NCBI GenBank assembly: GCA_001189095.1
Contig: LFCK01000001.1
Location: 253,159 to 317,158 of the forward strand
Length of the DNA: 64,000 nt
Source of the DNA: Parcubacteria bacterium C7867-001
GTDB lineage: Bacteria > Patescibacteriota > Minisyncoccia > Phycocordibacterales > Phycocordibacteraceae
Direction: 5' to 3'
Positions 2,805 to 63,724 of the stretch are shown piece by piece. A program made the translations under genes and the position numbers. Positions within the stretch are counted from its first letter, which is position 1, and every line of letters starts with the position of its first letter. The notes under the pieces were generated by a model. It did not search any database. It was given only the letters and a program-made list of their open reading frames with translations, and was not told the DNA's origin.

Positions 2805-3317
2805 ATGCATAAGTGCTACGGTCAACGTATGAAAGCGAAGGAGCAGCCGACACACATTGAGCGCATTGTTGCGTGGACAGGTTCCGTACCTTCGCTCGTT
2901 GTGCATACGGTAGCGTTTGCAGGAGCGTTCGCATTCGGACTATGGGGAGCGGCGTCATGGGATACAGTGCTGCTCGTTCTTACAACTATCGTCTCGCTCG
3001 AAGCGATTTATCTTTCGCTGCTCATTCAAATTACCGTAAATCGACAAGCGCAGTCTATTAAGGAGATTGAGGAAGATATCGAAGAAGTGCAGGAAGACGT
3101 CGAGGAGATCAGCGAGGACATCGACGAGCTTCAGGAAGACGTGGAAGAAATGTCGGAAGATGTTGAAGAAATGCAGGAAGACATCGAGGAGATGACCGAG
3201 GAGGAACAAGAAGCGGACGCAATCGAAAAGCAGCACACCGCAAATCTCGAGCAGCTCACGCAGGACGTGAAAAAACTCCTGCTTGACCTTGAAGCGCTGA
3301 AAGCAGAGAAGAAATAA
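2805..3317 (+). CDS. membrane protein with two TM helices and a highly acidic heptad-repeat C-terminal tail (DUF1003-like)
   Basis: GGGAGA RBS 5 nt upstream. N-terminal hydrophobic segments, then six EDxEExQ/S repeats encoded by 21-bp tandem repeats. Confidence 0.6.
   Translation: MHKCYGQRMKAKEQPTHIERIVAWTGSVPSLVVHTVAFAGAFAFGLWGAASWDTVLLVLTTIVSLEAIYLSLLIQITVNRQAQSIKEIEEDIEEVQEDVEEISEDIDELQEDVEEMSEDVEEMQEDIEEMTEEEQEADAIEKQHTANLEQLTQDVKKLLLDLEALKAEKK
3067..3192 (+). repeat. 6 x 21-bp imperfect in-frame tandem repeat (gaagayrtcgargarrtsnns)
   Basis: Read directly: gaagatatcgaagaagtgcag / gaagacgtcgaggagatcagc / gaggacatcgacgagcttcag / gaagacgtggaagaaatgtcg / gaagatgttgaagaaatgcag / gaagacatcgaggagatgacc. 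Confidence 0.8.
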
Positions 3318-39274: not shown

Positions 39275-39709
39275 ATGGGAAAGAAACGAATCATCAAGAA
39301 GAGCGGCAAAGGCCTCGATCAGGGACGCAAGGAGCGCGCCCTTTCGAAAATCGCAAAGAAGCGCATCGAGCGCGGTATTCTTCACGTTGAAGCAACCTTC
39401 AACAACACCAAGTGCGTCCTTACGGACGAGAAGGGCAATGCCGTCATGTCTTCTTCCGCAGGTGCGCTCGGCTTCTCTGGCGCCCGCAAGTCGACCCCGT
39501 ACGCAGCCGCTAAGGTCGGTGAACTTCTCGGCGAAAAGGCAGCAGTCATCGGCCTTAAGGAGGCTTCCGTCATCATCCGCGGCATCGGTGCTGGTCGCGA
39601 ATCAGCTCTCCGCGCATTCGCAGGAAAGGGTATCGCTATCCGCGCTATTAAGGACGCAACGCCGGTTCCGCACAACGGCCCGCGCCCACCTAAGCCTCGT
39701 CGCGTCTAA
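39275..39709 (+). CDS. rpsK: 30S ribosomal protein S11
   Basis: GILHVEATFNNTKCVLTDEKGNAV...GFSGARKSTPYAAA. Confidence 0.95.
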   Translation: MGKKRIIKKSGKGLDQGRKERALSKIAKKRIERGILHVEATFNNTKCVLTDEKGNAVMSSSAGALGFSGARKSTPYAAAKVGELLGEKAAVIGLKEASVIIRGIGAGRESALRAFAGKGIAIRAIKDATPVPHNGPRPPKPRRV

Positions 39710-42121: not shown

Positions 42122-42523
42122 ATGTCTGACACCAATTACACTCTCGCCATCGGCCGCCGCAAGACCGCAACCGCGCGCGTCCGCATCTCGCCGGCCTCAA
42201 AGACCACAATCATGGTGAACGGCATGGACGCGAAGGACTATTTCAAGACTGCAGAGCGCGCAGGCGTTCCGACGCAGGCCCTTCATGTCTTCGGTGAAGC
42301 TGCGAAGAACTACCTCGTCGAGGTAAAGGCAGCTGGAGGCGGTCTCTCGGCTCAGGCAGACGCTGTCCGCCACGGCATCGCTCGCGCGCTCACGAAGCTC
42401 GACGCAGCGAACCGCCCAGCTCTCAAGGAAGCAGGCTTCCTCACTCGCGACCCTCGCGCTGTGGAGCGCAAGAAGCCGGGTCTTCTTAAGGCCCGCAAGC
42501 GCGGAGCTTGGAGCAAGCGTTAA
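42122..42523 (+). CDS. rpsI: 30S ribosomal protein S9
   Basis: C-terminus KARKRGAWSKR. Confidence 0.95.
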   Translation: MSDTNYTLAIGRRKTATARVRISPASKTTIMVNGMDAKDYFKTAERAGVPTQALHVFGEAAKNYLVEVKAAGGGLSAQADAVRHGIARALTKLDAANRPALKEAGFLTRDPRAVERKKPGLLKARKRGAWSKR

Positions 42524-42533
42524 TACTCCAACA

Positions 42534-42564
42534 AAACCCGCCGCTGGCGGGTTTTGTTTTTACA
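42534..42564 (+). terminator. intrinsic terminator of the rplM-rpsI operon
   Basis: aaaacccgccgctggcgggttttgtttttac. Confidence 0.7.
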
Positions 42565-42593
42565 TTTACGAAACTGTGTGCAAGCATTAAAAA

Positions 42594-43109
42594 ATGCAAG
42601 AATTTCTGGCGACTCTTTCTTCAGCTGACATCATCCAGCTACTCGTCCTTCTCACTTTAGTGATTACATTTCTTTATAGCATCTTGAGAGACTTATTCTT
42701 AGCTATTATTAAAAGAAAGAGATTGAGTTTATTGAAAGCAACGCTTACTTACTACGATCTCCCGAAAGATAGAGGTTATAAAAAATATACAATACTTGAA
42801 ATCGAGGTATATAACAGTAGTCCTAATTTAATCTCGTTAAAAACGTTTAGAGTGGAGACTCTTGACGGTAACATTGTAGAAGACAATTGTGATTTATGGT
42901 CCAGTGGAGGCATGTGTGACCTCAAACCAAATTCAATTAGCCATCGAAAAGTAAGCTGGTTAGATCGTAAATTATCTAAGCAGGAAGTAAAAGAACTGAT
43001 GTTAATCGACTACTCAGAAAAAACTTATCGTTTTGATCCAAATAAACATTTAACTGAGAGAACATTGAAGGAAATACCCAGCAAAGACGAGTGGCGTCAT
43101 CGCCCTTAA
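42594..43109 (+). CDS. AT-rich (~36% GC) hypothetical membrane-anchored protein, probably horizontally acquired
   Basis: Sharp compositional shift relative to ~58% GC flanks; N-terminal TM; followed by a degenerate second copy of the rpsI terminator at 43140-43175. Confidence 0.5.
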   Translation: MQEFLATLSSADIIQLLVLLTLVITFLYSILRDLFLAIIKRKRLSLLKATLTYYDLPKDRGYKKYTILEIEVYNSSPNLISLKTFRVETLDGNIVEDNCDLWSSGGMCDLKPNSISHRKVSWLDRKLSKQEVKELMLIDYSEKTYRFDPNKHLTERTLKEIPSKDEWRHRP

Positions 43110-43322
43110 GCTCGCAAGGAGTTTAGTATTGTTCATACCGAAACAAGCCCGTCGCTGGCGGGTTCAGGGTTTTTGTGGTGATATGCACCCAGACCCTGCG
43201 TACCTTGGCAGTGTTTGGAAGGATGAAAAATGTCCGCAGGTAGAATACTGCGCGGCTAGGGGCACGAATCCCGACCCCTTTCGGTCAGGTGACCAAACCT
43301 AAGGCATACGAAAGTATCGACA

Positions 43323-44075
43323 ATGTCCATCTATCAGGACCGAATCGACACGCCATTCCAGTTTATGGAACGCGTGCTCGCCAAGAGTCTCTGCATGCCG
43401 CTCGTCGACCTTAAGGGTCGATGGGGGTCGTTCAGCCCCTTTTACAACGCCTACAACGCGTCGCTCAAAGAAAAGCGGCGAGAAGGGGCGCGCGGAGCTG
43501 CAAGCTTCCTTATGTGGATGTTTCTCGCTGGCGGCTTCTCGAGCTGGTTTGCAGACGCAAACGTAACGCATGTGGACGTGGCCATCCGACTCACATTCTT
43601 CACGAGCGCTCTGGTTTGCTTCGTGTACTGGCTGTATCTCGTTTTCCTGCGAGCGCGTCTCGCGGAAAACTACAGGACGTCTGAACTCGAATACGCGAAG
43701 AATGCGATGCAGTACATCGACAGCTACAACTGGCTGCTCCGAGAGACGGATCCGAAAAATATTCGGATCTACGACCTTTCGCTGAACCAGCTTAAGGCCG
43801 TCGCTGGAAACCTCTTGATCGAACGTGCGGAATGGGTCCTCAAGTTCGAGAAAGAGAACGAGGGCTCGCCGGAAGAGCATTGGCGGGAGGCGAAGAAGCC
43901 GCTCGTCGCCAGCTTCGAGACGGCCTATGACCACCTCTACAAGCTCGGTCTCGTCGAGGACTACCGCAAGTTCGGTCGCTACTACGACATGGCTCGAATC
44001 AAGATGAATCCGCCCAAGCCGCTCACTGGTGAAGCATCGCAAGATGCGCCGGAGCGCAAAGACCAACAAGTCTGA
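43323..44075 (+). CDS. hypothetical membrane protein (250 aa)
   Basis: Plus-strand ORF has protein-like composition and TM helices. The overlapping 256-aa minus-strand ORF is R/L/V-rich and looks like an antisense artefact. Terminator tgcgcccaccccaaaggggtgggcgctttctg follows. Confidence 0.55.
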   Translation: MSIYQDRIDTPFQFMERVLAKSLCMPLVDLKGRWGSFSPFYNAYNASLKEKRREGARGAASFLMWMFLAGGFSSWFADANVTHVDVAIRLTFFTSALVCFVYWLYLVFLRARLAENYRTSELEYAKNAMQYIDSYNWLLRETDPKNIRIYDLSLNQLKAVAGNLLIERAEWVLKFEKENEGSPEEHWREAKKPLVASFETAYDHLYKLGLVEDYRKFGRYYDMARIKMNPPKPLTGEASQDAPERKDQQV

Positions 44076-44167
44076 ATATGTGCGCCCACCCCAAAGGGGT
44101 GGGCGCTTTCTGTAACTAGCAGTTTTTGCGCTCGCAGTGTAGGGTGCAATCAGAAAAGGAGAAGGTC

Positions 44168-44485
44168 ATGCCCTCAGACGACGAAATCCACCCAATGCAC
44201 CTTGCAGCCTATAAGGAACGCTGGGACGACCCTGAAACTTCGCTTGATACCAAGCTGTACTACGGCCAAGCGTGGGCAGATTCGGTTTCCACGGACGTCT
44301 GCAACCAGTTCTATACAACCCATCGAAAACTAGCGCCGCACGTCGAACGAGTCTTCCTCATGAAGCTCGGCGCAGCTCTCACCAAGGCTCATGAGGAGAA
44401 AAAGACCGGCCAGGAAGCCGTGAAGATTCTCGTCGACGCCTGTGCCGAAGCTGGCCTCACGAAGAAAGTCCCGGAGGCAGCCTAG
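44168..44485 (+). CDS. hypothetical protein (105 aa)
   Basis: RBS AAAAGGAGAAGG; terminator atacggcccgcactttgtgcgggccgttttttg follows. Confidence 0.45.
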   Translation: MPSDDEIHPMHLAAYKERWDDPETSLDTKLYYGQAWADSVSTDVCNQFYTTHRKLAPHVERVFLMKLGAALTKAHEEKKTGQEAVKILVDACAEAGLTKKVPEAA

Positions 44486-44553
44486 GTATACGGCCCGCAC
44501 TTTGTGCGGGCCGTTTTTTGACTCCAAAATCCATTTCAGGCATAGTTGAAGCA

Positions 44554-45087
44554 ATGGATGACATCGATGATGTTCAGATAGAAGCGGATGGCTCCGAGGA
44601 ACTCGGCGGTTCTGGAGGCGATGCTGCATCGAAAGTCTCGAAGCAGAAGTCGGAAATCGAGAAGCTTCGTGCTGAAAAGCAGGAATACCTCGACGGCTGG
44701 CAGCGCGCAAAGGCGGACTATGTGAATGCGCTCAAGCGCTTCGAGGCTGAAAAGAAGGGCGCGATTGAGCTCGGTAAGGTGCTTTCGGTAAGTGCCTTCC
44801 TTCCGGTCATGGATTCTCTCGAACGCGCTGAAGGTTCAGGCGAGGTTCCCGAATCTTTTAAAGGAATCGCCAAGCAGCTCCATGACGCTGCCAACACTCT
44901 TGGCCTTAGCAAAATAGGCACAGTAGGGGAGAAGTTCGACCCAATGCTCCACGAAGCTCTTGGCCAAGACGCAGCGAAATCCTCCGAAGAGGACGATACG
45001 GTCACTGCAGTACTTGAAGCCGGCTGGAAGAGCAATGACGCCGTCATTCGCCCCGCCAAGGTCCGCGTCGCGCATTTTGAGGGGTAA
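44554..45087 (+). CDS. grpE: nucleotide exchange factor GrpE
   Basis: Coiled-coil region EIEKLRAEKQEYLDGWQRAKADYVNALKRFEAEKK. Start placed at ATG 44554 because the ORF-track start (TTG 44518) lies inside the upstream terminator. Confidence 0.85.
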   Translation: MDDIDDVQIEADGSEELGGSGGDAASKVSKQKSEIEKLRAEKQEYLDGWQRAKADYVNALKRFEAEKKGAIELGKVLSVSAFLPVMDSLERAEGSGEVPESFKGIAKQLHDAANTLGLSKIGTVGEKFDPMLHEALGQDAAKSSEEDDTVTAVLEAGWKSNDAVIRPAKVRVAHFEG

Positions 45088-45464: not shown

Positions 45465-45503
45465 AACCAAACGGCCCGCGCAGAATGCGCGGGCCGTTTC
45501 TTA
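45465..45503. terminator. bidirectional terminator
   Basis: aaacggcccgcgcagaatgcgcgggccgtttcttattt. Confidence 0.6.
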
Positions 45504-50296: not shown

Positions 50297-50400
50297 AATA
50301 ACTATAACTCTGGATATCCAGAGTTATAGTTATCTTGGTTTTTGAAAATCCGTTATTTCCAAGATTAACGATAATCTACAACGTTGTAGATTATCGTTAA
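50297..50400. repeat. two long perfect palindromes (32 bp and 36 bp) in an AT-rich intergenic region
   Basis: aactataactctggatatccagagttatagtt (50297-50328) and ttaacgataatctacaacgttgtagattatcgttaa (50365-50400). Confidence 0.7.
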
Positions 50401-61487: not shown

Positions 61488-61522
61488 AAAAAACCCGGCC
61501 GCTCTGCGGCCGGGTTTCCGTT
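61488..61522. terminator. bidirectional terminator
   Basis: aaaaaacccggccgctctgcggccgggtttccgtt. Confidence 0.65.
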
Positions 61523-63685: not shown

Positions 63686-63724
63686 ACGTAAGTCCGGCCG
63701 CTCTGCGGCCGGACTTTTTTCTTT
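63686..63724 (+). terminator. intrinsic terminator
   Basis: gtccggccgctctgcggccggacttttttc. Confidence 0.7.

Follow-up and report, generated by a model that had tools for sequence, protein, structure and literature searches.

A moron-like single-gene islet of probable horizontal origin in the rpsI-grpE slot of Parcubacteria bacterium C7867-001

Genomic context of ORF171

A 64-kb stretch of the genome of Parcubacteria bacterium C7867-001 was analysed and is referred to here as the window. It carries the gene block rpoA-rplQ-rplM-rpsI, followed downstream by grpE, dnaK, and dnaJ, and the interval between rpsI and grpE contains three lineage-specific genes, ORF171, ORF250, and ORF105 (Table 1). 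An earlier reading of the window based on its letters and open reading frames (the sequence-only reading) had listed a 516-bp ORF at 42594-43109, and this ORF, which encodes 171 amino acids (aa) from an ATG start, was present as claimed. The genes within +/-10 kb of ORF171 were ribosomal, chaperone, and housekeeping genes, and no integrase, recombinase, transposase, phage, or plasmid gene could be found in that interval using Pfam.

Table 1. Positions of the features between rpsI and grpE, with the two border genes, in window coordinates
Feature	Position	Strand	Evidence
rpsI (ribosomal protein S9), last gene of rpoA-rplQ-rplM-rpsI	42122..42523	+	Pfam Ribosomal_S9, E 1.3e-37; ORF list
Hairpin 1, native intrinsic terminator of rpsI, left repeat copy	42530..42562	+	fold, motif match
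AT-rich, putatively inserted segment of ~570 bp (31-nt leader, ORF171, 26-nt trailer)	42563..43135	+	GC; no similarity to relatives' loci
ORF171, predicted TM helix and beta-sandwich	42594..43109	+	ORF list, homologues, AF2, charge count
Hairpin 2 and flanks, likely degenerate right copy of the rpsI terminator	43136..43174	+	stem 43146-43164, T-run 43168-43172
ORF250, lineage-specific ORFan of native GC in the rpsI-grpE gap	43323..44075	+	self match only; no family; GC3 0.725
Terminator of ORF250	44082-44106		
ORF105, second ORFan of native GC in the rpsI-grpE gap	44168..44485	+	no tblastn match in relatives
Terminator of ORF105	44490-44514		
grpE, far end of the variable slot; directly after rpsI in many relatives	44554..45087	+	Pfam GrpE; synteny

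A database entry for the exact ORF171 protein already existed, under the name of a hypothetical protein from 'Parcubacteria bacterium C7867-001'. The surrounding 14-20 kb of DNA recurred with 100% identity in one JGI metagenome contig, one MAG at NCBI, and several Logan assemblies, and the ORF171 sequence was present, and identical, in at least five independent assemblies. Its source metagenomes include SRR29904085, SRR2043728, and JGI 3300001199. As five independent assemblies were concordant, an assembly artefact could be ruled out. The copy in the NCBI MAG (DGYL01000002.1, L002) contained ~139 and ~108 additional bases at window positions ~39281-39291 and ~50311-50320, respectively, relative to both the window and the JGI contig. 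Its S11 gene call was truncated and L36 was absent; thus, these length differences are probably assembly differences. At another position in the window (3059-3202), a degenerate tandem repeat with a period of 9-21 nt, rich in GAAGA/GAGGA, forms part of a coding region, where it specifies an acidic, E/D-rich repeat.

Base composition and the rpsI-grpE slot in related genomes

Sliding-window calculation of GC and GC3 confirmed the ~36% GC given for ORF171 in the sequence-only reading and placed the gene at the lowest spot in the 64 kb. In 200-nt windows, GC was 0.315-0.375 over 42600-43099 versus 0.52-0.65 on either side. In 300-nt windows, the whole 64 kb had a mean GC of 0.532 (sd 0.039) with a minimum of 0.323 at ORF171 (~-5.4 sd), the lowest of five regions below 0.43. 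ORF171 itself had a GC of 0.357 and a GC3 of 0.349, while GC3 was 0.59-0.74 in rpoA, rplQ, rpsI, ORF250, ORF105, and grpE. Since the two ORFans of the same gap, ORF250 and ORF105, have a native composition (GC3 0.66-0.73 versus 0.35), ORF171 would be the youngest arrival between rpsI and grpE; ORF250 is an older occupant.

Related loci were collected by scanning one genome per species with S9, which yielded ~30 Paceibacteria/Kaiserbacteria-like loci (S9 51-64% identical, RpoA up to 80%). None of these ~30 loci encoded ORF171, ORF250, or ORF105. In the relatives, rpsI was followed by grpE across a gap of 126 bp to 2.8 kb, with the shortest gaps (126-217 bp) in L009, L014, L032, L035, L038, and others. 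The shared order and the variable gap indicate that rpsI-grpE was the ancestral arrangement and that the gap is a variable slot. Low-GC cargo was also present in this slot in L013, L015 (0.27 vs 0.42), L017, L023, L029, and L031, and the cargo across the relatives was heterogeneous, including NYN, zinc-ribbon membrane proteins, LPD3, PurC, and ORFans. Comparison of these sequences marks the rpsI-grpE slot as a recurrent gene-gain site in related Paceibacteria.

The sequence-only reading had called ORF171 foreign, and this description agrees with the deviating composition, the absence of the gene from the ~30 relatives, and the occurrence of two homologues in other contexts; on these sequence grounds, ORF171 can be regarded as a foreign gene acquired from outside. 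It had further been suggested to look in related genomes for an empty site with a single terminator. In the comparison, ORF171 was missing and grpE followed rpsI in the ~30 loci, but an empty site with a single terminator could not be found. All contigs with the exact ORF171 protein were 100% identical to the window; with every strain found being identical, the search yielded no empty site. ORF250 was unusable as an anchor for the search because it has no homologue, its own search returning a self match only.

Several slot genes of the relatives were inspected individually. In the complete genome of Patescibacteria UBA2103 (L015:6443-7544), the slot is filled by two tandem minus-strand genes with a GC of 0.27 (0.42 for the locus), both of which encode zinc-ribbon proteins with a TM segment. 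The slot ORF at L017:6935-7378 (147 aa, GC 0.39 vs 0.49) encodes an N-terminal TM helix and a beta-rich domain, and its C-terminal 'FEDYGGKEYV' recalls 'IDYSEKTYRF' of ORF171. Homology of this protein to ORF171 was not accepted, as hmmsearch returned nothing and hhalign gave an E of 0.037 with 1.4% probability. L006 ORF167 displayed no similarity to ORF171.

Homologues and predicted structure of the ORF171 protein

When 1.84 billion cluster representatives were scanned in full with HMMER, only two relatives of ORF171 emerged, namely P0002 (168 aa, 47% identical) and P0003 (158 aa, 32% identical), and the three proteins were collinear from Met1 to the C-terminus. A word-indexed search returned the query alone and, with a profile, just the three family members; the family consists of 3 members among ~15 billion predicted proteins. 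No relative of ORF171 could be detected by tblastn against phages and plasmids, or in viral contigs and metagenome contigs searched with the family alignment. ORF171 was unmatched, or matched at noise level only (E > 0.02), by the Pfam, PADLOC, PHROG, and NCBIfam profiles, and a sequence profile search of the PDB returned no match.

AlphaFold2 prediction from the three sequences (pLDDT 82) revealed a helix at residues 10-41 and a beta-sandwich at residues 44-158. ORF171 is laid out as an acidic N-terminus, a single TM helix (~residues 14-31), a KRKR stretch, and the beta-sandwich (~44-158). The sequence-only reading had described an N-terminal TM followed by an unrecognisable domain, and this could be sustained, the protein consisting of a TM and a ~130-aa domain with no family match in the searches; the remote homology search that it had proposed was carried out with profiles and gave no assignable family. 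Recurrence in assemblies, two full-length homologues, and a confident fold establish ORF171 as a real gene. In all three homologues, the N-terminus is acidic and no K/R occurs before the TM, which has ~18 hydrophobic residues, and 5-6 K/R occur within the next 20 residues. According to the positive-inside rule, positive charges mark the cytoplasmic side, so the charge distribution predicts an N-out/C-in orientation with a cytoplasmic sandwich. A protein tethered in this orientation to the inner membrane face is tentatively suggested by the charge count.

Foldseek comparison of the model with the PDB returned ApaG/DUF525, PCuAC, RbmA, and archaeal pilins with TM-scores of 0.30-0.42; the best matches, ApaG/DUF525, PCuAC, and archaeal pilins/ArlF-type, had E values of 1.6e-4 to 2e-3 at 8-16% identity. 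Comparison with BFVD returned small uncharacterised phage TM-plus-sandwich proteins as well as DUF4352/DUF5067 proteins, with TM-scores of 0.27-0.46. Judged from the predicted model, these matches represent a generic Ig-like sandwich resemblance. ApaG, PCuAC, and the pilins share the helix-plus-sandwich layout with ORF171, but their TM-scores were 0.34-0.42 and ORF171 has neither a pilin signal peptide nor copper ligands. A type IV or archaeal pilin was rejected on the N-terminus MQEFLATLSSAD, which is acidic and has no Gly-Phe junction, and on the positive charges that follow the TM. ApaG/DUF525 was rejected on Foldseek TM-scores of 0.34/0.42 at 11-13% identity and on the lack of a Pfam or PDB sequence match.

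Mpr, a membrane defence protein, contains a DUF4352 domain of phage origin (PMC12596739). ORF171 resembles Mpr/DUF4352 in its membrane helix and Ig-like sandwich and in its weak Foldseek matches to phage DUF4352/DUF5067 proteins, but the TM-scores were ~0.3 and the ORF171 sandwich is predicted to be cytoplasmic. None of the three family members matched the Pfam DUF4352 model (PF11611) at E <= 10, and a DUF4352/Mpr-like assignment was rejected.

Hairpins flanking the AT-rich segment

In Hairpin 1 (42530-42558), a perfect stem of 13 bp is closed by a GCT loop and followed by a T-tail; its folding energy was -20.5 kcal/mol and its z -5.5. The stem of Hairpin 2 (43146-43164) is 8 bp long and includes two G-U pairs, and CAGGG lies between this stem and the T-run; the fold was no better than that of shuffles (z -1.05), and Hairpin 2 is probably a weak terminator for ORF171. 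The core direct repeat between the two hairpins was identical at 18/20 positions. Both hairpins have the same loop, and both differences in the stem are transitions by which pairing is kept as G-U. Gapped alignment of 42524-42562 with 43136-43174 scored 18, while the maximum among 2000 dinucleotide shuffles was 16 (p < 0.0005), and the copies differed at ~9/41 aligned columns (~78% identical over 41 columns).

As a stricter control, the terminator-like hairpins of the window were aligned all-against-all (348 pairs). The Hairpin 1/2 pair tied for the top score of 19, ~3.4 sd above the mean (p ~0.01). This score was reached by 3/348 pairs, two of which were unrelated pairs (44490/45469 and 61489/63690), so the repeat is real while its strength is not unique. 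The duplicated terminator flanks claimed by the sequence-only reading therefore survived in so far as the 18/20 core and the alignment exceeded the shuffles, but they lost their standing as a unique signature, as unrelated terminator pairs of the window are equally alike. Two further details could not be sustained. The insertion had been placed in the rpsI terminator itself, whereas the AT-rich segment starts just 3' of the hairpin and not within it; and it had been called recent, which the ~9/41 differing columns do not support, every strain found being 100% identical. The divergence of the copies implies that the event was not recent or that the right copy was donor-derived.

The motif A2+C1-3GCC-N3-8-GGCG1-3T2+ had six matches in 324 kb of the relatives' loci, and all six lay directly behind rpsI, 11-25 nt past the end of the S9 match. 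In the window, the motif occurred once, as Hairpin 1, and Hairpin 2 does not conform to it. As the motif of Hairpin 1 is confined to rpsI in the relatives, Hairpin 2 would probably be a diverged copy of Hairpin 1. The clade-specific stem type, together with the identical unconstrained loop and the pairing-preserving transitions, makes it likely that Hairpin 2 derives from Hairpin 1 by target duplication.

A donor search with the exact Hairpin 2 sequence gave no match in viral contigs. Rfam returned nothing at gathering thresholds and terminator-driven matches below threshold only, the 150-nt spacer at 43173-43322 folded no better than shuffles, and no sigma-70-like promoter could be recognised in the 42559-42593 leader, CPR promoters being poorly defined.

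The rpsI terminator, AAAAC(C)CGCC-N3-8-GGCGG(G)TTTT, is kept in the window (42533-42555) and in L007, L012, L015, L017, L020, and L022. The S9 proteins of the genomes sharing it are only 53-64% identical, and such conservation is unusual for a plain terminator. Other terminator pairs of the window were also alike. An identical 19-nt hairpin core, CCGGCCGCTCTGCGGCCGG, occurs at 61495-61513 and 63694-63712, where it ends two divergently transcribed, paralogue-like genes of 377 aa (-) and 289 aa (+), both with G-x-IHGDE; since its loop has the same orientation on the + strand, it is not a simple inverted duplication. A likeness as strong as that of Hairpins 1 and 2 was also seen between the terminators at 44490-44514 and 45469-45499 (ACGGCCCGC...GCGGGCCGT), which flank grpE and ORF95. 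Within the window, the highest similarities are often found between neighbouring terminators separated by less than 3 kb (3 of the top 6 pairs versus 10% of all pairs).

Flanking repeats at other loci

The gene for P0002 lies on a 746-bp contig (L085; ENA ERZ28573575 scaffold_689629) and has a GC of 0.26-0.39, while its left flank has a GC of 0.54. By eye, this flank corresponds to the 3' portion of a tRNA-Gln(UUG) gene that is truncated at the contig end, owing to which ARAGORN makes no call; the identical tRNA-Gln is present in five metagenome contigs. A 19-nt repeat brackets the P0002 gene (CCAGCCAAGTTGAGATAGG / CCAGACAATTTGAGATAGG, 17/19 identical, p = 0.005), and its left copy corresponds to the tRNA-Gln 3' end and flank that are native in the related contigs. 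Downstream of the tRNA-Gln, the related contigs diverge (L086/L088, L087/L089, and L090). The tRNA pattern of L085 had no match in viral contigs. At L086:1055-1096, and also in L088, a degenerate second tRNA-Gln end with flank occurs ~570 nt downstream of the tRNA (p = 0.003), and the repeat pair in L086 encloses a different small minus-strand ORF.

In L022, a Minisyncoccia MAG, purC (SAICAR_synt) with its own terminator lies directly behind the rpsI terminator. This unit is bracketed by a 62-nt direct repeat that is identical at 60/62 positions (L022:6431-6492 / L022:7550-7611). The repeat begins in the T-tail of the terminator; its right copy covers the start of the next ORF (ATG and first four codons), and its left copy contains the same codons followed by a stop. 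As read from these sequences, target sequence was unambiguously duplicated in L022, at the site that is also occupied in the window. Weaker repeats at the rpsI terminator were observed in L030 (p = 0.007) and L026 (p = 0.037).

Proposed origin and comparison with known elements

Taken together, these data indicate that ORF171 is probably a horizontally acquired, moron-like single-gene islet in the rpsI-grpE slot of Parcubacteria bacterium C7867-001. Integration would have duplicated ~20-40 nt of the target. It could have proceeded by a single (Campbell-type) crossover between the terminator and a short homologous stretch on a small circular DNA, linear DNA also being admissible as a donor for short-homology integration, or by a recombinase acting in trans; the homologous segment would be duplicated by either route. 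The element would be non-autonomous. After integration, the upstream copy would have been kept under selection as the rpsI terminator, and the downstream copy would have decayed so that it now ends ORF171 weakly. Other than the two hairpins, no inverted repeats could be found at either end of the AT-rich segment. Given that there is no recombinase, that terminal inverted repeats are missing, and that the repeats of 19-62 nt are locus-specific, integration by short homology or by a recombinase in trans would be most economical.

The term moron denotes a single gene whose GC deviates and which has its own terminator; such genes often encode small membrane proteins that protect the host from other phages (PMC3594210). 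The islet resembles phage morons such as HK97 gene 15 in that one extra gene of deviant GC, with transcription signals on both sides, lies between conserved genes: its GC is 0.36 versus 0.53 and its GC3 0.35 versus 0.59-0.74, and it has the strong Hairpin 1 upstream and the weak Hairpin 2 downstream. Unlike morons, it lies in a bacterial chromosome beside a ribosomal operon with no prophage, has no recognisable promoter of its own, and is flanked by repeated target sequence.

Integrase-dependent islets at tRNA ends are similar in their imperfect ~20-nt direct repeats, the left copy of which lies in the 3' end of a structured RNA, as with the 18/20 repeat at the rpsI terminator here and the 17/19 repeat at the L085 tRNA-Gln. 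The islet differs from them in that it is ~0.6 kb long, the sole ORF between the repeats is ORF171, which is not a recombinase, and no integrase occurs in +/-10 kb. The repeat sequences differ between the rpsI and L085 loci, and hence there is no shared att site. Campbell-type integration would account for direct repeats of 20-62 nt made from the target, most clearly in L022, but no circular intermediate or donor was seen here. Stretches of 12-20 perfect bases are short for RecA-dependent recombination. An IS, transposon, or MITE was rejected on the lack of terminal inverted repeats and of a transposase, and on the length of the repeat, 20-39 nt versus a target duplication of 2-14 bp. An integron cassette was also rejected, since the hairpins are ordinary terminators of 19-29 nt versus at least ~57 bp for attC, no integrase is present, and the L085 homologue has no attC-like hairpin.

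CPR/Patescibacteria genomes are small and streamlined, and gene gain in them is poorly documented. The present locus provides a clean example of a single foreign gene gained at a defined site, the conserved rpsI terminator before grpE; the parallel cases in relatives suggest that this site is a hot spot, and the repeated flanks (20-62 nt) hint at short-homology integration or a recombinase in trans. The acquisition is of an ordinary horizontal kind and not a new system, mildly unusual in its extremely rare protein family and in flanking repeats shared with independent cases. It is quite improbable that tiny non-autonomous single-gene CPR cassettes, with ORF171 and the L085 gene as members, integrate next to RNA 3'-end structures (intrinsic terminators and tRNA 3' ends), duplicating 20-60 nt of the target, by means of a recombinase supplied in trans or of host recombination. 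If true, such cassettes would explain the rpsI terminator as a recurrent gene-gain site in the window, in L022, and perhaps in L026 and L030.

Alternative explanations

As the main alternative, the islet might be the relic of a larger integrated element, a prophage or island that entered site-specifically at the rpsI terminator and was reduced to one gene by internal deletions. Imperfect direct repeats with a perfect 10-12 nt core do resemble att cores, and a tRNA 3' end, a classic integrase target, adjoins the homologue in L085 and is repeated there; moreover, the sequence after tRNA-Gln varies among contigs and L086 carries its second tRNA end ~570 nt downstream (p = 0.003). However, decay at two independent loci would have had to stop at precisely one and the same gene, with the repeats around it intact, the +/-10 kb around ORF171 contain no integrase, phage, or plasmid gene, and neither a relative in viral contigs nor phage or plasmid matches could be found, which leaves a relic unlikely. 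An equally unlikely history is one with no target duplication, in which ORF171 came in, or emerged, together with an unrelated terminator of its own, the likeness of the hairpins being ordinary for GC-rich terminators in this genome. The equal or closer pairs 44490/45469 and 61489/63690 among the 3/348 with the same score, including a 19/19 core, speak for such a history, as does the failure of Hairpin 2 to fit the rpsI-terminator motif. It is opposed by the CCGCC/GGCGG stem type, specific to the rpsI terminator in the clade, by the identity of an unconstrained loop with similarity running into both flanks, by the position of the hairpins exactly at both composition boundaries, and by the parallel flanking repeats in L085 and L022. 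That ORF171 is a native, fast-evolving lineage-specific gene, its low GC being due to selection or local mutation bias, is highly improbable. Small orphan membrane proteins are common in CPR genomes, and the gap contains two further ORFans, the neighbouring ORF250 and ORF105; yet their GC3 is 0.66-0.73 against 0.35 in ORF171, the 47%-identical homologue has the same low GC in another context behind tRNA-Gln, and no relative carries ORF171 at the rpsI-grpE site.

The sequence-only reading had noted that small AT-rich cargo next to ribosomal operons is often an abortive-infection or toxin-type gene. A defence or toxin gene (abortive infection or toxin-antitoxin) would suit a small AT-rich cargo at a hot spot; P0003 adjoins a gene for NYN, a PIN-like RNase, and the fold is weakly like that of DUF4352-type phage proteins, one of which, Mpr, is a membrane defence nuclease. 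Nevertheless, PADLOC, Pfam, PHROG, and NCBIfam all gave no match, the islet contains no partner or antitoxin ORF, the invariant residues include no catalytic motif, the fold is not toxin-like, and membership in DUF4352 fails by sequence. A known defence or toxin family was rejected, with 0 PADLOC families at E <= 1 and no partner ORF. With no toxin or defence signature, the abortive-infection or toxin reading is unsupported, and a gene of this type is quite improbable. By analogy with morons, ORF171 might have an envelope-associated exclusion or defence role, although this is unlikely; very tentatively, it may be a moron-type accessory factor, for example one that blocks phage DNA entry or acts in another envelope interaction, and not a toxin.

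P0003, on a 1745-bp contig of JGI 3300071358, is encoded immediately after a gene with an NYN domain. NYN is also found in the low-GC cargo behind rpsI at L013:8532-9080, which may be a coincidence.
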